A stretch of DNA of 64,000 nucleotides, from assembly GCA_031555055.1 (NCBI GenBank), contig JAVBUT010000008.1:3354-67353 (forward strand). Reading direction: 5' to 3'. The position numbers were made by a program, and so were the translations under genes. The first letter of the stretch is position 1. Every line of letters begins with the position of its first letter. Shown here piece after piece: positions 1-44,568 of this stretch. The stretch comes from Alphaproteobacteria bacterium. Lineage in GTDB: Bacteria > Pseudomonadota > Alphaproteobacteria > Rs-D84. The notes below the pieces were generated by a model. The model worked only from the letters and a program-made list of their open reading frames with translations. It did not search any database and was not told where the DNA came from.

Positions 1-815
1 CCAAGGCGCTGGAAAAACTGTCCGCGTTCAATGCCAAAATCGGATATCCGGACAAATGGCGCGACTATTCCAAACTGGAAATACGCGATGATTCATTGCT
101 GGATAACATGATCCGTGTCGCAGAATTCGAAGACAGATTTTGGCTGGATAAAATCGGCCAGAAAAAGGACCCGACGATCTGGTATATGAACGCGCATACC
201 GTGAACGCATACTATGATCCGTCAACGAACGAAATCTGTTTCCCGGCCGGAATATTACAGTATCCATTCTTTGACATGAACGCGGATGATGCATTCAATT
301 ATGGCGCCATCGGCAGTGTGATCGGCCATGAAATGACGCATGGATTCGACGACCAGGGACGCAAGTTTGACAAGGACGGAAATCTGAAAGACTGGTGGAC
401 CGACGCCGACGGCCAGGCATTCGACACACGCGCCAGCGTCATGCGCAAATTCTTTGACAATATACTTGTCGCGCCCGGAACGCATGCGAATGGCGAATTC
501 ACGTTGGGTGAAAACCTGGCTGATTACGGCGGAATTACAATCGCATTTACCGCATACAAAAACTTTGGCAAATCGATCGCAGACAATGGCGAATTGTTAC
601 CAGATCAACGTTTTTTTCTGGCGTATGCGATGACCGAAGCGAAAAATATACGTGACGCTGAAATTTTACGTCTGACCAAAATGGACGAACATTCATTGGG
701 CCGTTGGCGCGTTAATGGAATCCTGCCGCACATTGACGCATGGTATGACGCATTCAGAATCACCGCCGGCGACACAATGTACATCGCCCCCAGCGAACGC
801 GTAAGAATCTGGTAA
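1..815 (+). CDS. pepO: M13-family zinc metallopeptidase (PepO/neprilysin-like), C-terminal part; 5' end outside window
   Basis: Frame is open from nt 3. HEMTHGFDDQG (HExxH), GENLADYGG and WRVNGILPHIDAWYDAF are typical M13 C-terminal motifs. TAA at 813-815. Confidence 0.85.
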   Translation, partial: KALEKLSAFNAKIGYPDKWRDYSKLEIRDDSLLDNMIRVAEFEDRFWLDKIGQKKDPTIWYMNAHTVNAYYDPSTNEICFPAGILQYPFFDMNADDAFNYGAIGSVIGHEMTHGFDDQGRKFDKDGNLKDWWTDADGQAFDTRASVMRKFFDNILVAPGTHANGEFTLGENLADYGGITIAFTAYKNFGKSIADNGELLPDQRFFLAYAMTEAKNIRDAEILRLTKMDEHSLGRWRVNGILPHIDAWYDAFRITAGDTMYIAPSERVRIW

Positions 816-3019: not shown

Positions 3020-4213
3020 ATGAAAAAATTATTGTTTGTTATTTTTTGTTTTTTGTCCCTTGGTCCAATCCAATTGCGTGCCGATGACGTGGCCGCCGTA
3101 AAAAAAACGGAAAAGCCGCATTATAAATCCTGGTCCGAGATTTCTTTTATCGATCCCGTCGACGGGTATTTTGACATGAGCGAGTTTATAATCAACGCCC
3201 ATGGTTTTGTCCCGATCCCGGTAATAATTACCGAGCCCGCAGTCGGCGGATTCGGAGGCGGAGTTGCGCCGGTGTTCATAGACCCTAAACCGCCTGTTGA
3301 AAAAGATGGCAAGATGTATCCGCAAAGTCCGGACATAACTTTGCTGGGTGGGATTTATACGCTTAACAACACATGGGCTTTGGCGGCGGGTCGCATCGGC
3401 ACGATCCAGGAATACGGACTGAAATACAAAGTGCTGGGCGCATATGCCGACGCGAATCTTGATTTTTACACCCCGCCTGAAAGCATTGTCCCGGACCATA
3501 AAATGGAATTCAATATCCAGGCAGTCCCGGTTTATCTGTATCTGGCCAAGCAACTGCACGATCCGCGTTTTTCAGTCGGTATGGACTATGTGTATTCTTG
3601 GATTGATCTGAAACCGAAATTCGCGGACCCGAATATTCCGGATTCATGGGAACATGACTTTAAACAAAACATGTCGCTGATCGGCGGTGTGTTCGAATTC
3701 GATAATCGCGATAATACATTCACACCCAACAGCGGTATAAAGATCGCTGTAAATGCGCGTTTTTCCGACACTCTGTGGGGTGGCGGTTCTGACTTTCAGA
3801 AAACCGAAGAATCCATGTACTGGTATCTGCCGGTGACAGATTCCTGGATCACCGCATTGCGTTTGGAAACCCAGCAGATGTTCGGTGACGCACCGTTTTA
3901 TCTAAAGCCTTTCATTGATATGCGCGGTGTTCCAATGGCGCGATATCAGGGTGATTACACCGCGCTGGCCGAGATCGAGGAAAGATACGATTTCGGAAAA
4001 TCAAAGCGTTGGTCCGTTGTCGCGTTCGGCGGCCTGGGCAAGGCCTTTGACGAATTCAACCAGTTCGATGACGCGAAAACAGTGTACAGCTATGGCGCAG
4101 GATTCAGATATCTGCTGGTCAGGAAACTGGGGATACGCGTCGGCATTGACGTTGCGAACGGCCGCGATGGTCCGGCATGGTATATCGTATTCGGCAGCAA
4201 CTGGGCCAGATAG
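3020..4213 (+). CDS. Omp85/surface-antigen-family outer-membrane beta-barrel without POTRA domains
   Basis: Signal peptide MKKLLFVIFCFLSLGPIQLRA. C-terminal GAGFRYLLVRKLGIRVGIDVANGRDGPAWYIVFGSNW resembles the Bac_surface_Ag barrel end. Confidence 0.6.
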   Translation: MKKLLFVIFCFLSLGPIQLRADDVAAVKKTEKPHYKSWSEISFIDPVDGYFDMSEFIINAHGFVPIPVIITEPAVGGFGGGVAPVFIDPKPPVEKDGKMYPQSPDITLLGGIYTLNNTWALAAGRIGTIQEYGLKYKVLGAYADANLDFYTPPESIVPDHKMEFNIQAVPVYLYLAKQLHDPRFSVGMDYVYSWIDLKPKFADPNIPDSWEHDFKQNMSLIGGVFEFDNRDNTFTPNSGIKIAVNARFSDTLWGGGSDFQKTEESMYWYLPVTDSWITALRLETQQMFGDAPFYLKPFIDMRGVPMARYQGDYTALAEIEERYDFGKSKRWSVVAFGGLGKAFDEFNQFDDAKTVYSYGAGFRYLLVRKLGIRVGIDVANGRDGPAWYIVFGSNWAR

Positions 4214-4238
4214 TGCAATACACAGGCATTTGTTCCTG

Positions 4239-4268
4239 TTGCCGTGCGATAAAAAACCGTGATATAAT
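4239..4268 (+). promoter_or_regulatory. Candidate sigma70 promoter with extended -10 (TTGCCG-N-TGATATAAT)
   Basis: TGATATAAT at 4260-4268, about 34 nt upstream of the small ORF start. Confidence 0.45.
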
Positions 4269-4301
4269 TTTTACACGCGAATAAAAAAGAGGGGGTCAGA
4301 A

Positions 4302-4475
4302 ATGCCACTAGTCAAAGGCTGCTCACGCAGGGCGATTTCGCAAAACATTCGAACCGAAGTGCACGAAGGCAAACCCCAAAAGCAAGCCGTCGCGATCGCA
4401 TTGTCAATCGCACGCAAGAACGCCGACAAATGCACGGTAAATCCACCGAAATTAAAACCTGTGAAAAAGAAATAA
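4302..4475 (+). CDS. Small basic protein (57 aa), below the ORF-track cutoff
   Basis: Strong RBS AGAGGGGG 6 nt upstream, its own promoter and terminator. MPLVKGCSRRAISQNIRTEVHEGKPQKQAVAIALSIARKN; the KQAVAIALS.ARK motif recalls a widespread family of small phage/bacterial proteins. Confidence 0.55.
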   Translation: MPLVKGCSRRAISQNIRTEVHEGKPQKQAVAIALSIARKNADKCTVNPPKLKPVKKK

Positions 4476-4496
4476 AATCCAACATCTTAAAAAAGC

Positions 4497-4527
4497 AAAA
4501 CGGAACCACGCGTTCCGTTTTTTTGTT
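4497..4527 (+). terminator. Intrinsic terminator
   Basis: AAAACGGAAC-CACGC-GTTCCGTTTT followed by a T-run. Confidence 0.75.
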
Positions 4528-4583
4528 TGCCCGATTTTGGCATATATGATATAATCAGTCTAATAAGGAAGGGAATCCCTGTG

Positions 4584-6869
4584 ATGAAAAGATTTGTTGC
4601 CGTGCTTGCCGGATTGCTGATTATGCCCGCATATGCGGAAATTGCGCCAATCGGATACTATGACGAAATCGTCGACGAATACGCCGACGAAGTGGCTGGC
4701 GACGTCGAAATCGAAGAGATAGAGGAAATCCCAGAAACAACAATACAAAAACCGATCGTGCCGGTCGCGCCTGCGTCATCATCTGCGCGCGTAACATCGA
4801 ACCGCACTGCATCGCGCGCAATGCCGGCCGGTAACGCAACCATTGCACCCGGACGCGGAACAACTACACGCGCCGTGGCATCACGCACAACAACGACAAT
4901 CCCCACGCGCAGTGCAATGCCGCAAAACGTCGTTTCACGCGCAGCAACATCGCAAACCCAACAACACGCAACACGGCGCAGCACACCGGCCAGGGCCGCC
5001 ACCGCTGCACGCGCCGCGACAACTGCTGGCTCTATAACCCAGACCGACACAGTATATTCACCACTGTACACCGGCCGCGTCAGTTCGCGTGGCGGCAATG
5101 CGATCACCGCCGGAACACGCGGCGCAACAACGCGCATCGCAACATCCAGCAACATCAGCGCCACACCAACGGTTGATGTCGCGTCATTGGATGAAATGGC
5201 CAAACTGACCGATTATTGCAAGGCACAATACACCCAGTGCATGGATAACTTTTGCGACGTTCTGGATGACAACCAGGGCCGCTGCAGCTGTTCTGCCAAT
5301 TTAAAAAATTACACCAAGACCGAAGAAGCGCTGAAAAAGATCACGGAAGAGCTTCAGGAAGTCGCACAAAAAATCCAATACATCGGTCTGACCAAGGATG
5401 AACTGACGTCTATGTTCACCCAGACCGAAGCCGAAGCCGCAATGCAGGGAAAAACCGACACAACCCAGCTGCGCAGCGATTTGGAAAAAATCAAAAATAT
5501 GATCGTCGATGTAAAAAATCCGTCGGCAACGACAAGCGATTCCGCATTCAGCCTGGATTTATCCAGCCTGTTGGATTTCAGCTTCTCCGACAGCGGATTT
5601 GACCTGAATTCCTTTTTTGGCACCAGCGCCAACACCAGTATCAGTAACCAGCGCGGCGAACAATTGTTCAAGACCGCCGTCGCGCGCTGCAAATCAGCTG
5701 TACTGGACAGCTGTTATGCCCAAGGCGTCGACACATCCGTCATAACCAATAGCTATGATCTGGAAATCGATAAACAATGCATTGTGTACGAACGCGATCT
5801 GATAGAGGCGAATACGCAAATGAACCGCACAGTTCGAAACGCCAAATCCGTTCTGCAAAAGGCGCGCCTGATCGTTGCCCAGAACAAGAACCAATACGAT
5901 CTGCGCGGATGCGTGAATGCGCTGGACACATGCATGCAGGATGAATTCGTATGCGGGTCGGACTATGAAAACTGTCTGGACGCAACCGGAAAATACATTG
6001 TGAACGGCGAAATCATAGTGGGCAGTCTGCCAGGCGTTGTCGGTGGAAATCTGTCGACCCAGGCGACCGGCACCGGCCTGTATTCGTCCTGGAATTACGG
6101 CAGCACGAACGCATGGAACGACGGTGGCGATATCGGGTCATTCATATCGACTTATATTTCTTCGGCGGACACGACAAATATGGTCGGATTTATGCAAAGC
6201 AGAATCGGATACAATCTGAACAGCCGCAATTACGGCATGTGCATATCCGTCCTGAACAAGTGCCAGGATGTGACATACACCAACGGGGTGTACAACAAGA
6301 ACAACAAAGTGGTTGAAAACTATCTGCAACGCACATTGGTCCAGATAAAATCGCAACAGGATGAAATACTGGCCAAATATGCGGAAAGCTGTATCAGCGA
6401 CGTGTCGTCATGCTTGTCGACGAACGGCTGGTCGACCACCGCAGACAGCTTTGTCCAGAACACGGCCCAGAACGCTTGCCGCGCGATCATCAGAACATGC
6501 GCCAGTGTCATAAACGCGGGCGTTAACGTGAACAGTTCCGCAGAACAGGAAATCATCGACGCGGCCACAAACAACAGCCACATGGCGTCGTCCGCTGTTT
6601 GCACAACAATCAGCGCAGTCGGCACGTTAAGCACGGATATTGTGAACGGTTGCCCGGTTTCCGGTTACCGCTGTCTGAACGGGTATAAGACCACAGCAGA
6701 CGGTCGCTGTGTGACCGCGTGTCCTGCGAATTCGAATTATGACGCGTCCAAGATTGCGACCAGCACCGGGTCTGCCACGGTACGTGGTGTCGTTGAAACT
6801 GATCCGGCCGGCGGGTTCTGCACCTGTGACAAGGTTGGCGACGCATCATCCGGCACATGCCCATTGTAA
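4584..6869 (+). CDS. Large secreted protein: signal peptide, acidic stretch, Arg/Thr/Ala/Ser-rich low-complexity region, long Cys-rich C-terminal region
   Basis: RBS AAGGAAGG. MKRFVAVLAGLLIMPAYA signal peptide, EIEEIEEI, then repeated ATR/TSR-type low complexity, then YCKAQYTQCMDNFCDVLDDNQGRCSCS and more than 30 further Cys. No family recognised. Confidence 0.75.
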   Translation: MKRFVAVLAGLLIMPAYAEIAPIGYYDEIVDEYADEVAGDVEIEEIEEIPETTIQKPIVPVAPASSSARVTSNRTASRAMPAGNATIAPGRGTTTRAVASRTTTTIPTRSAMPQNVVSRAATSQTQQHATRRSTPARAATAARAATTAGSITQTDTVYSPLYTGRVSSRGGNAITAGTRGATTRIATSSNISATPTVDVASLDEMAKLTDYCKAQYTQCMDNFCDVLDDNQGRCSCSANLKNYTKTEEALKKITEELQEVAQKIQYIGLTKDELTSMFTQTEAEAAMQGKTDTTQLRSDLEKIKNMIVDVKNPSATTSDSAFSLDLSSLLDFSFSDSGFDLNSFFGTSANTSISNQRGEQLFKTAVARCKSAVLDSCYAQGVDTSVITNSYDLEIDKQCIVYERDLIEANTQMNRTVRNAKSVLQKARLIVAQNKNQYDLRGCVNALDTCMQDEFVCGSDYENCLDATGKYIVNGEIIVGSLPGVVGGNLSTQATGTGLYSSWNYGSTNAWNDGGDIGSFISTYISSADTTNMVGFMQSRIGYNLNSRNYGMCISVLNKCQDVTYTNGVYNKNNKVVENYLQRTLVQIKSQQDEILAKYAESCISDVSSCLSTNGWSTTADSFVQNTAQNACRAIIRTCASVINAGVNVNSSAEQEIIDAATNNSHMASSAVCTTISAVGTLSTDIVNGCPVSGYRCLNGYKTTADGRCVTACPANSNYDASKIATSTGSATVRGVVETDPAGGFCTCDKVGDASSGTCPL

Positions 6870-25357: not shown

Positions 25358-25508
25358 GGGATCAAAATGAAAAATGAAAAATGAAGAATGAAAAATTAGA
25401 TTCATTTATCATGACATTTTTCTCAAGACAAGGAAACAGGTAAACAAAGATGAACAAACTAATTAAATCATTTTTCATTCTTCATTTTTCATTTTTCATT
25501 TTGATCCC
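25358..25508. repeat. Perfect 39-bp inverted repeat (AATGAAA 7-mer family) with a 73-nt loop holding the virB9 RBS and ATG
   Basis: GGGATCAAAATGAAAAATGAAAAATGAAGAATGAAAAAT (25358-25396) is the exact reverse complement of 25470-25508. Confidence 0.95.
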
Positions 25509-26925
25509 ATTTGTATGCAATGCAAATGGCGTGCAAGAGGCTTGGGATAACCCGAACGCCAACATGGCCGCTGGTTCTGTAAAACCCGGATATGCCCAGC
25601 TGACCTGGTCGACGGGCGCGGTTCTGCCTATCAAATTGCGCAACGGAATGGTCACCATGGTAAATCTGCCCAATGGCGAAGAGATCGTCGACGGCGTTGT
25701 CGGAAACCAGGATTTGTTCGACTTTGATCCGCAAAAAAACGGGCGCAGCATGTTCATAACCCCCGCCGGCAGCAATCAGGGTGCAGACACTAATCTGATC
25801 GTAACCGGAAAATCCGGAAACAAATATATTTTCTATCTGCGCAGCGAGCCCGCCAACAGCTCTGAGATCACATATTCCCAGGTTGATATCGTACTGGACG
25901 GAAACTCTACACTGCCCGGCACAACCGGCTCTAATGCACAGTACGCCGGCATGAATTCCATATTTAAAAAGGCTTCCACTGGCGCCGGCAGCATGGTTGG
26001 CGTTGACGGCGAAGATTACGGCTGGATAAAATCGATGAAAATCGATCCGTCGGAATTCCGTTTCGATCTGGACATATTCGTTCCAAATCCGGACGACTAT
26101 GTAATCGCACCGGAACGCGTGTGGCGTGATAGAATCTTTACATACATTGACTTTGGCGACAAGGTTATCGCAATGACCCAGCGTCCTGTTGTATCGCTGT
26201 TGGTCGAAGGCGGCGAATCCCCGGTCGGATTCCGCACAGACGGCCAAGACGGCAGACTGTTGATAGTAGAAGCCGTGGGCGACATGGTTCTGCGCAGTGG
26301 ACAACGTATCGTATGCATCAAGAAACGTGAAAAGCCGTTCCTGATCGCGGATACCAACAGCGTTATGGCCCTGGCCGAAGCGAACGTCGCACGCAGCATG
26401 ATGTCCAGCCAATCGCTGAACAATGTCGCATACGGCGATATGCAGATGACACAGACACTGGGCGTGCAACAAATGGGCTATGGATATGCCGCACCGATGA
26501 TGATGCCGACATCCGGAACATACGGTGGATCAACGACGGCCGGCCTGGTGATGATACCGACAGAAAGAAACACAGCCGGCGCATATCTGCCACAAACAAA
26601 CATTCCGCTGATCAGCAGCAACCAAGCCGGTGTCGCGGTTGAATTAAAATCCGACACATCAGTCAAGGCATTGAATGATTACTGGACAGGATTATTGGCA
26701 AAGTTCAGCGGCGATGACGGCAAAGGCGTTCTGACGCCATACAAGAACAGCGTGTTCTTTGCGGTTGATGAACAAGGCGTCGGCGATCTGGGCGACGCTG
26801 CGACATCTGCGCGCCTGTACCGTCTGCGTATCGGTCCGATGTCTGATATCGACAGCGCACAAAAACTGTGCGACCAACTGTTAAAGTTCAGCGGCGCCAG
26901 CTGTCACGTGGTGAGAATACAATAA
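25450..26925 (+). CDS. virB9: VirB9/CagX/TrbG-family T4SS protein with C-terminal SPOR domain
   Basis: Signal peptide MNKLIKSFFILHFSFFILIPFVCNA. VTMVNLPNGEEIVDGVVGNQDLFDFD...TNLIVTGKSGNKYIFYLRS (VirB9 N-domain). RIFTYIDFGDKV...PVVSLLVEGGESPVGFR (C-domain). Tail LYRLRIGPMSDIDSAQKLCDQLLKFSGASCHVV (SPOR-like). Confidence 0.85.
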   Translation: MNKLIKSFFILHFSFFILIPFVCNANGVQEAWDNPNANMAAGSVKPGYAQLTWSTGAVLPIKLRNGMVTMVNLPNGEEIVDGVVGNQDLFDFDPQKNGRSMFITPAGSNQGADTNLIVTGKSGNKYIFYLRSEPANSSEITYSQVDIVLDGNSTLPGTTGSNAQYAGMNSIFKKASTGAGSMVGVDGEDYGWIKSMKIDPSEFRFDLDIFVPNPDDYVIAPERVWRDRIFTYIDFGDKVIAMTQRPVVSLLVEGGESPVGFRTDGQDGRLLIVEAVGDMVLRSGQRIVCIKKREKPFLIADTNSVMALAEANVARSMMSSQSLNNVAYGDMQMTQTLGVQQMGYGYAAPMMMPTSGTYGGSTTAGLVMIPTERNTAGAYLPQTNIPLISSNQAGVAVELKSDTSVKALNDYWTGLLAKFSGDDGKGVLTPYKNSVFFAVDEQGVGDLGDAATSARLYRLRIGPMSDIDSAQKLCDQLLKFSGASCHVVRIQ

Positions 26926-29269: not shown

Positions 29270-29349
29270 GCCTGCGTCAAAACAGGTTTATCTTGTTGGC
29301 GGAACGTATTGATCAAACCAGCCAATTTTAAAATCTGAAATTATTATTG

Positions 29350-29374
29350 ATCGCCACTTTGGCGATTGTTTTTT
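29350..29374 (+). terminator. Intrinsic terminator ending the virB8-10 operon
   Basis: ATCGCC-ACTTT-GGCGAT followed by TGTTTTTT. Confidence 0.65.
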
Positions 29375-37277: not shown

Positions 37278-38399
37278 TTAATGAAACACATAGCTGTCAA
37301 TGCCGGTGGCGCTGGCATTATTTTTTAATTTTTGGGCCGATCCTTCGGACAATCCGTTTGCGCGCACGCGAAACATCCCATTGGGCGCCTGCTCTATCAT
37401 TGTGCTGACCCCCAGTGCATTTTTAACTTTATTCTGCTGGGCGGTGGCGGCCGATTTGGATGAAAATGCGCCGAACTGGACCCCGGAACCGCCGGATTGC
37501 ACCGTGACCGGCACGGGTGTCTTTTGCGGCGGTGGCGCAGAATAAGCTTCTTCATCAGTTTCGTCATCATAAGAATATTTCTGCAACGTCGGTGCGGCGC
37601 CAACCTTGACCAGTTCGAATCCCTTGTTCAGCATGCGGACAGACGCCGCCGCGCGAACATCCTTGGTGGACGCGCCCAGGACGACGGACATCAAGTGTTT
37701 GTTTCCGCGCCGCGCCGTCGCAACCAGCGAATATTTCGACTTGTTCGTGTATCCGGTTTTCATACCGTCACAGCCCGGATAAGTTTCCAGCAACCGATTT
37801 CCGTTATTGTATGTTTTGCCATTATACGTCCATGACTTGATTCCGAAATATTTCCAGTATTGCGGAAAATGTTTATACACTGCCATAGACAGCAACGCGA
37901 TATCGCGCGCCGTCGACAAATGATCATCGTCCGGCAGACCGGACGAATTCGCAAAGTTTGTCTTCGACAGTCCGATTTCGTTCGCGACATGCGTCATCAG
38001 CGACGCAAAGTTTCCTTCTTTGCCACCCTTTAAATTTTCGGCCAGCACGCGCGCAACGTCGTTCGCGCTGTGCACGGCAAGCGCCTTGATCGCGTCTTCG
38101 ACCTTGATCTTTGATCCCGCGGCCAGCCCCAGTTTAACCGGCGACGCATTCGCGGCGGATTGCGACACGATCAGATAATCATCCAAGTGCAAGCGTCCGT
38201 GTTCCAGCGCGTCGAACGTCAGATACAGCGTCATAATTTTGGTCAATGACGCCGGATAGTTCAGATCGCTGGCGTTTTCCTGGTACAGTACCTGGCCGGT
38301 ATCCATATCCGCGACCAAGGCCGCCCGATAATCCGCAGCATGCGCCACAGAAATGAAAAATGAAAAATGAAGAATGAAAAATGTAATTAGTTTTCTCAT
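37278..38399 (-). CDS. D-alanyl-D-alanine carboxypeptidase (S11, PBP5/6-like) with C-terminal SPOR domain
   Basis: SLTK, HSAN and KTGYT active-site motifs. Tail VQFGAFSSKSAATAQ...MFRVRANGLSEGSAQKL. Signal peptide MRKLITFFILHFSFFISVAHA. Confidence 0.88.
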   Translation of the reverse strand: MRKLITFFILHFSFFISVAHAADYRAALVADMDTGQVLYQENASDLNYPASLTKIMTLYLTFDALEHGRLHLDDYLIVSQSAANASPVKLGLAAGSKIKVEDAIKALAVHSANDVARVLAENLKGGKEGNFASLMTHVANEIGLSKTNFANSSGLPDDDHLSTARDIALLSMAVYKHFPQYWKYFGIKSWTYNGKTYNNGNRLLETYPGCDGMKTGYTNKSKYSLVATARRGNKHLMSVVLGASTKDVRAAASVRMLNKGFELVKVGAAPTLQKYSYDDETDEEAYSAPPPQKTPVPVTVQSGGSGVQFGAFSSKSAATAQQNKVKNALGVSTMIEQAPNGMFRVRANGLSEGSAQKLKNNASATGIDSYVFH

Positions 38400-38485
38400 G
38401 AACAAAATGATACAAAAAATTCGACACACGGGTCAATGGATAAAACAGTATTAATTTTTCATTCTTCATTTTTCATTTTTCATTT
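38351..38485. repeat. Perfect 32-bp inverted repeat (AATGAAA family) with a 71-nt loop holding the dac start codon
   Basis: AAATGAAAAATGAAAAATGAAGAATGAAAAAT (38351-38382) is the exact reverse complement of 38454-38485. Confidence 0.95.
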
Positions 38486-42400: not shown

Positions 42401-42615
42401 GGGTATATAGGTAACCAAACCTTTCTACTTGATTGTCTTAAAAATTATATGTATCTTGTGTATGTGATATTGTTAGGTATAGGAATTAGAACTCCTTAAA
42501 ACACACAGTGATCTAATCATATCCTGGCTACGGTCGGGATGCTGTCGGTTATACTCAAAGCCGACGGGGGTTCTGTGTGAACTTTGTTCTAACTCCCGAC
42601 CATTCCTCTGTCGAA

Positions 42616-44568
42616 ATGAGAGAATGGTTAAACGCACAATTTCAAAACATATTCCTGTGGTCGCCATTTTTAATGGCCGCGGCCAGTGCGCTTTATTTCA
42701 CGTTGTCTTTTGAACCAAATATAATCTATCCCATTGTCGCGTTTTTAATCGCGATTTTATTTTTACTCTTTCGGCAGACGCGGATCGCCGGATTATTTAT
42801 CGCATTGTTCGTCGGCGGTTTTCTGTACGCGGATATTTATACGCGGATGGTGAACACACCACAGATAACGCACGATATGCGTAATACCGAAATCACCGGC
42901 ACCGTTGCGAACATTGACTATACGGATACTAAATCCAGGATGTTTATAAAAATTCCGTCAAACCAGATAAACAAGGATTTATCCGCAAACAAAACGGCCA
43001 TGATCCGCGTATCGTTCGACCAATCGCTGGTCACGCCGAAAATAGGCGACGCGATCAGCGCGCGCGTGACATTGTATCGACCGGACGGCCCGGTCGCACC
43101 CGGTGCGTTCGATTATGCGCGCTGGGCGTACTTTAACGGGATCAGCGCGACAGGATACGTAACAGAATTAAAAATAAAAAACATAAATCGGCAATCCGTA
43201 AACATAAATTCCCTGCGCGATACGATTCATAATCATACGAATTCTTTTCTGTCCGACACGCTGGTTTTGGGATATAAAAATGCTGTGCCACGCGATGACG
43301 TTCCGGTATGGACGGCATCCGGTGTCGGGCACGTATGGTCGATCAGTGGGTTTCACATGACATTGGTCGGCGGATGGTTGGCAATATTATTCTATGCGGT
43401 GTTCCGGCTGATCGCACCGATCACGCGACGTATTCCGGCGCGATATCCGGCACTGGTATGTGCATGGTTCGGATTGCTGTTTTATTTATTTCTGTCGGGG
43501 ATCGATGTCGCGACCATTCGCGCATTTTTAATGACAACACTGATATTCGCAGCGTTCCTGTTCGGTCGCGTTTCATTATCGCTACGCAATGTGTGCATGG
43601 TATTTTTCGCGATATATTTACTGAACCCGCATTATGTTATACAGCCCGGATTTCAATTATCTTTCGCGGCGATATTCGGACTGGTATGGTGGTTCGGCGA
43701 CATGGAATATAAAAAGCGAAATCTGGTCGGAAAATTTATTAACATTACAAAAATCACAGCCCAGACATCAATCATCGCGACGATTTTCACGGCGCCGTTT
43801 GTCGCACATCATTTTTATTTTGTGCCACTGTATGGACTGATCGGGAATCTGATTTTATTACCAGTGTTTTCAATCGCAATAATGCCACTGGTGATAATCG
43901 GAACGATAACCGCGTTGTTTGGCTGGACCGGCCCGCTGATTTTATCGGACAGAATTTATTATTTCTTGCTGGGCATTGCGAACCATATCGCCAGTCTGCC
44001 CGGGGCCCAGTTGCAGATTCCGCATATCTCTGGCACGGCGCTGGGGCTGGTGACGATCGGATTTTTATGCCTGATGTTTATTAACAATATTGGAAAGTTA
44101 AAAATAAATTACGTTCTGTGCGGCACGTTTATGACGGCCGGCGTTTTGGTTGTCTTGCTGACACCGCGTCCGATTTTTTATTCGACCGATGATAATAAAT
44201 TAATCGGTGTTGTTAAATCCGGCACATTGGAATTCAATCAAGCCCGCGCATCAGACCATTACTTTGCATTCGAATCATGGAAGAAATTAAACTTTGAAAA
44301 TCCGACGACCGATAACAAAAGATTCAAGTGCGATCATGGCGTTTGTCGGATTAAAACAAAAAATTGGAATCTGGTCTATGTACAGAAATACATGCCATTG
44401 GCGCGGAATATTGTTGACGTATGTCGCGATGATAATGTGGATTTTATAGTGTCTTATTTCCACGTTACGGCGCCAAAGTGTCGCGCAAAAATCATGCGCG
44501 GTGGGTTTGTGATTTATGAACCAGGTCGGATTAAATACACCCCGTCGGGACGGTGGTGGAATCACTGA
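42616..44568 (+). CDS. comEC: ComEC/Rec2-family competence membrane protein
   Basis: Multi-TM protein. WTASGVGHVWSISGFHMTLVGG is a typical Competence-domain motif. Start taken at MREWLNAQ. Confidence 0.8.
   Translation: MREWLNAQFQNIFLWSPFLMAAASALYFTLSFEPNIIYPIVAFLIAILFLLFRQTRIAGLFIALFVGGFLYADIYTRMVNTPQITHDMRNTEITGTVANIDYTDTKSRMFIKIPSNQINKDLSANKTAMIRVSFDQSLVTPKIGDAISARVTLYRPDGPVAPGAFDYARWAYFNGISATGYVTELKIKNINRQSVNINSLRDTIHNHTNSFLSDTLVLGYKNAVPRDDVPVWTASGVGHVWSISGFHMTLVGGWLAILFYAVFRLIAPITRRIPARYPALVCAWFGLLFYLFLSGIDVATIRAFLMTTLIFAAFLFGRVSLSLRNVCMVFFAIYLLNPHYVIQPGFQLSFAAIFGLVWWFGDMEYKKRNLVGKFINITKITAQTSIIATIFTAPFVAHHFYFVPLYGLIGNLILLPVFSIAIMPLVIIGTITALFGWTGPLILSDRIYYFLLGIANHIASLPGAQLQIPHISGTALGLVTIGFLCLMFINNIGKLKINYVLCGTFMTAGVLVVLLTPRPIFYSTDDNKLIGVVKSGTLEFNQARASDHYFAFESWKKLNFENPTTDNKRFKCDHGVCRIKTKNWNLVYVQKYMPLARNIVDVCRDDNVDFIVSYFHVTAPKCRAKIMRGGFVIYEPGRIKYTPSGRWWNH

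Follow-up and report, generated by a model that had tools for sequence, protein, structure and literature searches.

A VirB9 protein with a divergent C-terminal SPOR domain in uncultured gut Alphaproteobacteria

How does a type IV secretion machine relate to the cell wall that surrounds it? Such machines must cross the wall and sit in it, and in the classical VirB systems VirB1, a lytic enzyme separate from the ring, is mostly credited with the relation between the outer ring and the peptidoglycan. A stretch of 64,000 nucleotides from an alphaproteobacterium of the order Rs-D84 (assembly GCA_031555055.1, contig JAVBUT010000008.1, positions 3,354 to 67,353; hereafter, the window) raises this question in a new form. 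Between virB8 and virB10 it encodes a protein of 491 amino acids (aa), which an earlier note on this DNA had read as a VirB9 ending in a SPOR domain, that is, in a septal peptidoglycan-binding domain. Our analysis indicates that this fusion is real, widespread and undescribed; it overturns nothing, and its function is what we infer below. The protein is the ring subunit VirB9 of a type IV secretion system that is encoded on the chromosome and inherited vertically by its hosts, reduced-genome gut alphaproteobacteria of the order Rs-D84. Its tail most likely serves, in the periplasm, to anchor the machine to the wall or to bind a partner, with a remodelled specificity.

The assignment to VirB9 is supported by sequence and by fold. 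The Pfam family CagX (PF03524) matches aa 50-292 with 77.8 bits (cut-off 34.2), over model positions 5-197 of 198. Using the whole-protein AlphaFold2 model as a query, Foldseek retrieved TrwF of R388 (8rt6_B, 2.7e-17) and the Xanthomonas VirB9 (6gyb_B, 9.6e-17), and also DotH, TraO and CagX. The N-terminal domain superposes on the N-terminal domain of the R388 I-layer TrwF with a template modelling (TM) score of 0.80-0.84 (7o3t_B, 8rt6_v). The C-terminal domain reaches a TM-score of 0.80 with TraO (2ofq), and the C-terminal domain of the Xanthomonas VirB9 (2n01) was matched as well. The equivalog model for the P-type conjugative VirB9, TIGR02781, gave 51.7 bits and stayed below its cut-off of 217.7; the protein belongs to the VirB9 family without being an equivalog of its P-type conjugative form. 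A label from the DNA-uptake (ComB) systems, as in the 'ComB9' names found at JGI, was considered and rejected: the T4SS_ComB10 model reached 47.3 bits, with a cut-off of 300, and the generic VirB10 model scored higher, at 64.5 bits.

For the tail, the Pfam evidence alone is thin. The SPOR model (PF05036, cut-off 21) scores 24.1 bits on the isolated tail and 20.7 bits on the whole protein, and only positions 42-75 of its 76 align. Five independent lines combined, however, raise the SPOR assignment to near certainty. All of the 44 homologous tails match Pfam SPOR, with E-values of 0.01 or lower and a best value of 6.7e-07. From 1.84 billion representatives, a profile built from the tails retrieved only 62 proteins at E <= 0.001. 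The top matches were VirB9 proteins or fragments of them, and 40 of the 43 weaker ones were bona fide Pfam SPOR proteins (best E 2.5e-34). In a profile-profile comparison by hhalign, the tails matched 25 canonical alphaproteobacterial SPOR domains with 98.0% probability (E 1.5e-13), in 79 columns spanning the whole domain. Furthermore, two separate AlphaFold2 runs, one on the tail and one on the whole protein, gave the strand order beta-alpha-beta-beta-alpha-beta. In the whole-protein model, the predicted local distance difference test (pLDDT) score of the SPOR part is mostly 81-91, dropping to ~52 in the beta2-beta3 loop.

A Foldseek search of the PDB with the tail model returned SPOR domains as its four best matches: RlpA (6i09 and 6i05), CwlC (1x60) and DedD (6ztg). 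For RlpA 6i09, the tail model gave E 4.9e-04 and a TM-score of 0.65 on the target, and the whole-protein model a TM-score of 0.71 with a root-mean-square deviation of 3.4 Å. Sequence searches against solved structures, with either the single protein or the tail profile, found no SPOR chain, their top matches being chance hits to antibodies. This is expected, because pairwise identity within the SPOR family is below 20% (bioRxiv 10.1101/2022.07.01.498525). Among the comparisons with solved or canonical SPOR domains, the kinship emerged only at the level of folds and of profile against profile. The VirB9 tail is a true homologue of the alphaproteobacterial SPOR domains. The SPOR-family domain proposed in the earlier note is thereby borne out by profile-profile and fold comparison, and the motif on which that proposal leaned (YRLR.G...A..LC..L...G..C.VV) is indeed the consensus of canonical alphaproteobacterial SPOR domains. 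Its suggestion that a DD-carboxypeptidase in the window carries the same kind of tail did not hold: BLASTP finds no match between the two, and the carboxypeptidase has a VQFGAF strand and lacks the cysteine pair. Ordinary SPOR domains are thus also present in the host organism.

The layout of the protein (Table 1) was derived from the whole-protein AlphaFold2 model together with the per-region identity among 120 relatives. It agrees with the earlier description of two canonical VirB9 domains, a linker and a tail. The interval previously given to the tail, 26632-26925, spells out aa 395-491 and the stop codon. The peptide quoted for it matches the DNA, and the interval starts no more than two residues from the domain start derived here (beta1, 394-402). 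The linker, described as a Met/Gly/Ala-rich stretch of about aa 330-390, consists of three parts, namely two conserved pieces (aa 297-327 and 368-393) and, between them, a truly variable stretch (aa 328-367). Altogether, ~95 residues predicted to be disordered lie between the VirB9 sandwich domains and the SPOR domain. Constraint differs along the tail, with the SPOR part 83% identical across species and the linker at 20%; in tblastn, VirB8 of the same loci shows 42-74% identity. The core of the pre-SPOR motif, G..LP....PL[IV], persists even in relatives of 33-46% identity.

What could such a domain bind? In the crystal structure of the RlpA SPOR domain with a denuded tetrasaccharide, direct polar side-chain contacts are made by Q270, R302, R309 and R311, F274 stacks on a sugar and L307 makes a hydrophobic contact (PMC6895207). 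The arginine pair binds the lactyl carboxylate of N-acetylmuramic acid, and the majority of the glycan contacts come from the backbone (PMC6895207). Q270 is highly conserved, with Q251 of FtsN and Q351 of DamX as its equivalents (PMC6895207). When this residue is replaced in FtsN (Q251E), the isolated SPOR domain shows reduced septal localisation and reduced binding of denuded glycan, and the full-length protein has a shorter stationary time on denuded glycan (bioRxiv 10.1101/2024.05.13.594014).

To place these residues on the VirB9 tail, the sequence of the RlpA construct was taken from the PDB and aligned with canonical SPOR domains and the VirB9 tails, by hhalign for beta3 and by MAFFT for beta1. 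An hhalign of the canonical SPOR profile with the single RlpA sequence was unusable for beta1: as an internal repeat, the SPOR domain was matched there by its wrong half, and the MAFFT alignment was used instead. In beta3, hhalign pairs RLYRLRIGP of the window protein with ILHRVRLGP of RlpA, and the basic patch (RlpA R309/R311, FtsN R285) is kept: L307 corresponds to L456, R309 to R458 (Arg in 356/364) and R311 to R460 (Arg in 341/364). In beta1, Q270 corresponds to E398, which is Glu in 295 of the 296 aligned VirB9 tails, Asp in one and never Gln. G272 and A273 correspond to K400 and S401, and F274 to D402 (Asp in 281/298). Two cysteines, C474 and C485, are both present in 362 of 364 tails. 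The pair is common to the canonical alphaproteobacterial SPOR subfamily, and would fit an oxidising periplasmic location.

With Glu in place of Gln, the tail is homologous to SPOR domains but lacks one of the features by which the family is functionally defined. Gln is invariant at the E398 column in the 25 canonical alphaproteobacterial SPOR domains, the nearest kin of the tail. Because the DD-carboxypeptidase of the same genome has a VQFGAF-type SPOR domain, the Glu is a peculiarity of VirB9 rather than a trait of the lineage. Relatives of 33-46% identity also lack the Gln, their beta1 strands reading IELG.H, IEIGVN, LEIAVD, IDLGSS and VELGAA. The strict conservation of Glu398 argues for a functional change rather than decay. 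By homology and fold the VirB9 tails belong to the SPOR superfamily, in which they form a distinct, Glu-type subfamily that was seen on VirB9 only.

The fusion is widespread. The full-length protein forms at least 1000 clusters at 90% identity, and the 120 clusters listed are 70-100% identical to the window protein and all come from metagenome-assembled genomes of uncultured 'Alphaproteobacteria' or 'Rickettsiales'. A scan of one genome per species detected a relative in 289 species. The best 80 of these 289 species, on which all locus counts are based, all originate from guts, of animals or of termites, and many of them go under the name Candidatus Enterousia. Candidatus Enterousia is placed in the order Rs-D84. 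Genomes in this order measure 0.67-1.6 Mb, lack a tricarboxylic acid cycle and a respiratory chain, and encode few recognisable transporters (PMC12306168). In the same paper the word 'secretion' is absent, and 'type IV' appears only for the pili of another lineage (PMC12306168).

The locus is conserved along with the gene. virB8, virB9 and virB10 stand together in 80/80 loci. nusG and secE lie upstream on the opposite strand in 78/80, two small genes (orf116 and orf131) lie downstream in 68/80 and 66/80, and yidC-lspA follow farther downstream, where the contig reaches, in 53/80 and 41/80. It is a chromosomal locus that is inherited vertically, and not a mobile element. In all 80 species the virB9-SPOR match reaches residue 491 as a single uninterrupted open reading frame (ORF), and therefore the tail is fixed, in no fewer than 80 species of Rs-D84. 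Four public records with an alphaproteobacterial virB9-SPOR locus (L004, L017, L020, L053) are titled 'uncultured Muribaculaceae' or 'Bacteroides fragilis', which probably reflects mislabelling or mis-binning of the source assemblies.

The tailed VirB9 recurs at 33-46% identity in other, more distant uncultured alphaproteobacteria. Their operons all lie among housekeeping genes and have the order virB8'–small lipoprotein–virB8–virB9-SPOR–giant virB10 (1628-2274 aa)–virB11, with simpler versions also present. The VirB10 that partners a tailed VirB9 is always enlarged (663-2274 aa). Faint Pfam matches to 'Bflower' were seen in the giant VirB10 proteins of four of these loci (Table 1), in one of which, L086, an additional 997-aa gene precedes virB10.

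We found nothing in the literature on a VirB9 with a SPOR domain, on type IV secretion with SPOR, or on Rs-D84 with type IV secretion. The statement of the earlier note that no VirB9-SPOR architecture has been described therefore agrees with what we found, both in the literature and in characterised systems. That note had also taken an architecture already common in annotated loci as a ground against its reading, and this holds by half. The architecture is in fact fixed in hundreds of uncultured species, but the full-length proteins are labelled TrbG/VirB9 only, and in no characterised system did we come across it. In the precomputed annotation, a few full-length proteins have both Pfam matches (P0037, P0043, P0052). 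Tail-only fragments from short contigs have the NCBI name 'SPOR domain-containing protein, partial'. The constituents, namely the CagX and SPOR matches, are already in the databases, and the combination is new to the literature as we found it.

How might the tail work? Solved core complexes (R388, pKM101, Xanthomonas) contain ~14-16 VirB9 copies, with the C-terminal domain of VirB9 in the outer layer, under the outer membrane. With such a copy number, each machine would carry a crown of ~14 tethered SPOR-like domains. This crown would lie in the periplasm, roughly level with the cell wall, and the ~95-residue tethers would suffice to span the distance to the peptidoglycan layer that surrounds the complex. 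The ring could then be held or positioned by many weak contacts with peptidoglycan. Our favoured reading, to which we give a probability of about 0.5, is that the tethered SPOR domains hold or position the core complex in this manner, with an altered ligand preference. The retained arginines together with the new acidic pair suggest that the ligand would probably be a wall feature other than the plain denuded strand, for example a modified glycan. Alternatively, the affinity might be deliberately low, such that only the assembled, multivalent ring binds (avidity).

A more specific version is possible, though the odds are against it. Here, the Glu-type SPOR domain would be a neofunctionalised wall reader, with the invariant acidic pair E398/D402 beside the arginines, which places or licenses the secretion machine. 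N-deacetylated (positively charged) sugars, or another lineage-specific modification, can tentatively be named as candidate ligands. If this is true, the tails would be the first case of a SPOR subfamily that has changed its ligand, and VirB9-SPOR the first type IVA core subunit to have a wall reader built in.

Several points weigh against a wall-binding SPOR tail. The Pfam SPOR match is limited to the second half of the model, with the whole-protein score just under the cut-off, and the tail-only AlphaFold2 model has a pLDDT of 70.7, which is moderate confidence. Since Q251E weakens the binding of FtsN to denuded glycan, the VirB9 tail may bind no peptidoglycan at all. E398 may simply form a salt bridge with R458/R460. 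Furthermore, where the tail lies relative to the wall, how many copies of it there are and whether avidity plays a part are all extrapolated from other systems.

The main rival starts from this possible loss of wall binding. It sees the tail as a SPOR-derived protein-protein module that docks, for example, onto the long VirB10, VirB8 or a neighbouring VirB9, using as docking surfaces the charged face (E398, K400, D402, R458, R460) and the pre-SPOR peptide. The loss of the canonical Gln and of the aromatic residue and the invariance of the charged face speak for it. Immediately before the domain, aa 368-393 form a linear motif that is conserved although predicted to be disordered, as is typical of a docking peptide, and the tail always co-occurs with an enlarged VirB10 (663-2274 aa). 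However, both arginines by which the glycan pocket of SPOR domains is defined are strictly retained, and a floppy tether of 95 residues would be odd for a fixed structural contact. We consider a pure docking function unlikely.

The opposite rival keeps the function of the family unchanged, with the tail binding denuded glycan strands and thereby concentrating the machine at division sites or new poles. Tethering to denuded glycans, and hence to division sites, was the function put forward in the earlier note, and it is not supported as stated. The most conserved Gln of the cleft, a contact residue, is Glu in 295/296 tails, and the sugar-stacking aromatic (RlpA F274) is Asp. The laboratory exchange Q251E weakens FtsN, which loses septal localisation and denuded-glycan binding in part (bioRxiv 10.1101/2024.05.13.594014). 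In addition, the carboxylate of the Glu would adjoin the carboxylate of the ligand, and the same genome keeps a canonical VQFGAF SPOR domain on its DD-carboxypeptidase. A functionally canonical tail would nevertheless agree with the SPOR homology and fold and with the conservation of both basic-patch arginines. The RlpA glycan contacts are chiefly made by the backbone (PMC6895207), many copies per machine might offset a weaker site, and DotK is an earlier example of a wall-binding subunit that brings about polar placement (PMC10266036). In view of the remodelled face, this explanation appears improbable.

A third proposal is that the tail stands in for a VirB7 lipoprotein or a VirB1 transglycosylase that the system lacks, by providing contact with the outer membrane or the wall. 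In Rs-D84, no VirB7-like or VirB1-like ORF was found in the operon or within 6 kb in the 80 species, and neither the stretch upstream of virB8 nor the gap between virB8 and virB9 has a VirB7-like ORF. The more distant operons, however, contain small ORFs of 54-71 aa (Table 1) with lipoboxes (LVAC, LNSC, IAGC) and a common K.SPCAC motif. These belong to a family of 162 clusters, all unannotated, and by their sequences they look like VirB7 equivalents. As the VirB7-like gene shares an operon with the tailed VirB9, the tail and the VirB7-like protein coexist in these lineages, and the idea of a VirB7 replacement, also raised in the earlier note, is weakened. SPOR domains have no lytic activity, and therefore the tail would be no replacement for VirB1. 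This makes compensation very unlikely.

Finally, an artefact, in which an assembly join, a frameshift or a mis-called ORF has merged VirB9 with a separate SPOR gene, is ruled out by the uninterrupted ORF in 80/80 species, at least 1000 protein clusters and distant lineages.

In the window, virB9-SPOR is the middle gene of a three-gene operon (Table 1). Only 16 bases separate the virB9 stop from the virB10 start, and the Rs-D84 operon ends with virB10, 3' of which a terminator scan found a terminator-like hairpin. Pfam scans of 33 window ORFs detected none of virB2-6, virB11 and virD4, and the window has virB8-9-10 only. The VirB10 protein has weak immunoglobulin-like matches at aa 68-150 (choice-of-anchor D, Cep192_D4) and continues for ~200 residues beyond the TrbI domain to a Cys-rich end (CEDGMAPDANGCCAGETYTDMGEQGFNCCPAGGGDCFPP); this C-terminal extension has no NCBIfam match. 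The two small genes directly downstream, orf116 and orf131, match neither Pfam nor NCBIfam and might belong to the secretion locus as accessory genes that have gone unrecognised. At a distance of 13 kb from the virB operon there is a gene for a ComEC-type competence channel, with Competence and DUF4131 domains, which may be relevant if the secretion system serves DNA uptake. Elsewhere in the window, an ORF of 780 aa without a Pfam or NCBIfam match lies in a stretch of unusually high AT skew (0.229 at 4001-6000).

Table 1. Features of the VirB9-SPOR protein, of its operon and window, and of related loci (positions refer to the window unless a locus is named)
Feature	Residues	Position	Strand	Remarks
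virB8	221 aa	24687-25352	+	Pfam VirB8 4.7e-14; opens the three-gene operon
virB9-SPOR	491 aa + stop	25450-26925	+	Pfam CagX 1.3e-21; between virB8 and virB10
N-terminal hydrophobic leader, presumed Sec signal peptide	1-25	25450-25524	+	low-pLDDT helix aa 4-15; 19% identity
VirB9 N-terminal beta-sandwich	48-149	25591-25896	+	pLDDT ~90; 76% identity
Loop	150-199			poorly modelled
VirB9 C-terminal beta-sandwich	200-293	26047-26328	+	97% identity, the most conserved region
Tether	297-367	26338-26550	+	pLDDT < 50; helix region, then variable linker
Short helix region of the tether	297-327			85% identity
Variable low-complexity linker of the tether	328-367			20% identity; 33-66 residues long; G/T/A/N/Y/M-rich
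Pre-SPOR motif	368-393	26551-26628	+	M.PTER.TAGSYLPQTNIPLI.SNQ; 80% identity, yet predicted disordered
Divergent SPOR domain	394-491	26629-26922	+	83% identity; beta1 394-402 (VAVELKSD), alpha1 405-420, beta2 435-442, beta3 454-464 (LYRLRIGP), alpha2 467-481, beta4 486-490
virB10	775 aa	26942-29269	+	Pfam TrbI 5.5e-19; NCBIfam T4SS_VirB10 9.4e-18; closes the operon
Terminator-like hairpin		29348-29368		3' of virB10
orf116	116 aa	29537-29887	+	directly downstream of virB10
orf131	131 aa	29982-30377	+	directly downstream of virB10
DD-carboxypeptidase (Peptidase_S11)		37278-38429	-	canonical SPOR tail, VQFGAF...FRVR, without cysteine pair
ComEC-type gene		42577-44568	+	Competence and DUF4131 domains
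ORF of 780 aa	780 aa	4527-6869	+	no Pfam or NCBIfam match
VirB7-like ORF, L083		1395-1571		between two virB8 paralogues
VirB7-like ORF, L086		1022-1237		between two virB8 paralogues
VirB7-like ORF, L081		4026-4190		~1.8 kb upstream of a single virB8
VirB7-like ORF, L087		10001-10180		between two virB8 paralogues
VirB7-like ORF, L088		10001-10177		gene upstream of it without a VirB8 match on record
Giant virB10, L083		4115-10939		faint 'Bflower' match
Giant virB10, L086		3622-11535		faint 'Bflower' match; preceded by a 997-aa gene
Giant virB10, L087		12811-19452		faint 'Bflower' match
Giant virB10, L088		12674-19189		faint 'Bflower' match

In the tailed VirB9 the ring subunit itself bears a domain of the wall-binding type, and selection has fixed it in hundreds of species. 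The retention of a conserved secretion system in genomes of 0.7-1.6 Mb suggests importance for the gut lifestyle. Moreover, since the natural change from Gln to Glu is the same as the laboratory change Q251E in FtsN, the family offers a ready-made test of SPOR ligand specificity.

Among known systems, the closest likeness is to VirB9, TrwF and TraO of the type IVA machines (R388, pKM101, Xanthomonas citri), which have the same two beta-sandwich domains, the CagX match and the virB8 and virB10 flanks. The window VirB9 differs from them by ~200 extra C-terminal residues (tether and SPOR). Unlike the VirB9 of conjugative elements, it is chromosomal, placed among housekeeping genes and vertically inherited. 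In this respect it resembles the rvh systems of Rickettsiales, which are chromosomal, occur in islands split among housekeeping genes and have the order virB8-virB9-virB10(-virB11); a full rvh set comprises virB2-4, multiple virB6, duplicated virB8/9, virB11 and virD4. The likeness extends to the duplicated virB8 and the VirB7-like lipoprotein of the related tailed-VirB9 lineages. In contrast to rvh, the Rs-D84 operon ends after virB10, and the named genera among the 62 tail-profile matches include no named Rickettsiales genus (Rickettsia, Anaplasma, Wolbachia).

A comparable role is known from the type IVB system Dot/Icm of Legionella. DotK is associated with the core complex and has a wall-binding domain that attaches to peptidoglycan and on which the polar placement of the machine depends (PMC10266036). 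It is therefore a precedent for a wall-binding core subunit that governs machine placement. DotK, however, is a separate lipoprotein with an OmpA-like fold that reads the peptide stem, and not a SPOR domain fused to a VirB9/DotH homologue.

On the side of the SPOR domains, the nearest sequence relatives are the alphaproteobacterial domains with a cysteine pair (WVQLGSY...YRLR.GPF....A..LC..L...G..C.VV), found in TPR-, ankyrin- and BON-containing proteins. They have the two invariant cysteines and the YRLR.GP strand in common with the VirB9 tail. They keep the invariant Gln (alignment column 6), though, and none of the Gln-keepers is fused to VirB9. With the SPOR domains of RlpA (P. aeruginosa), FtsN, DamX, DedD and CwlC, the tail has in common the fold, the strand order and a Ser at the position of FtsN S254. 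Both arginines are present in HRVRLGP of RlpA and in YRLRIGP of the window protein. Compared with RlpA and FtsN, the VirB9 tail has Glu for the Gln (Q270/Q251), Asp for the aromatic F274, and longer alpha1-beta2 and beta2-beta3 insertions (~98 versus ~76 residues). Whereas the SPOR domains of the RlpA and FtsN type are found on division proteins or wall hydrolases, the VirB9 tail sits on a subunit of a secretion machine.

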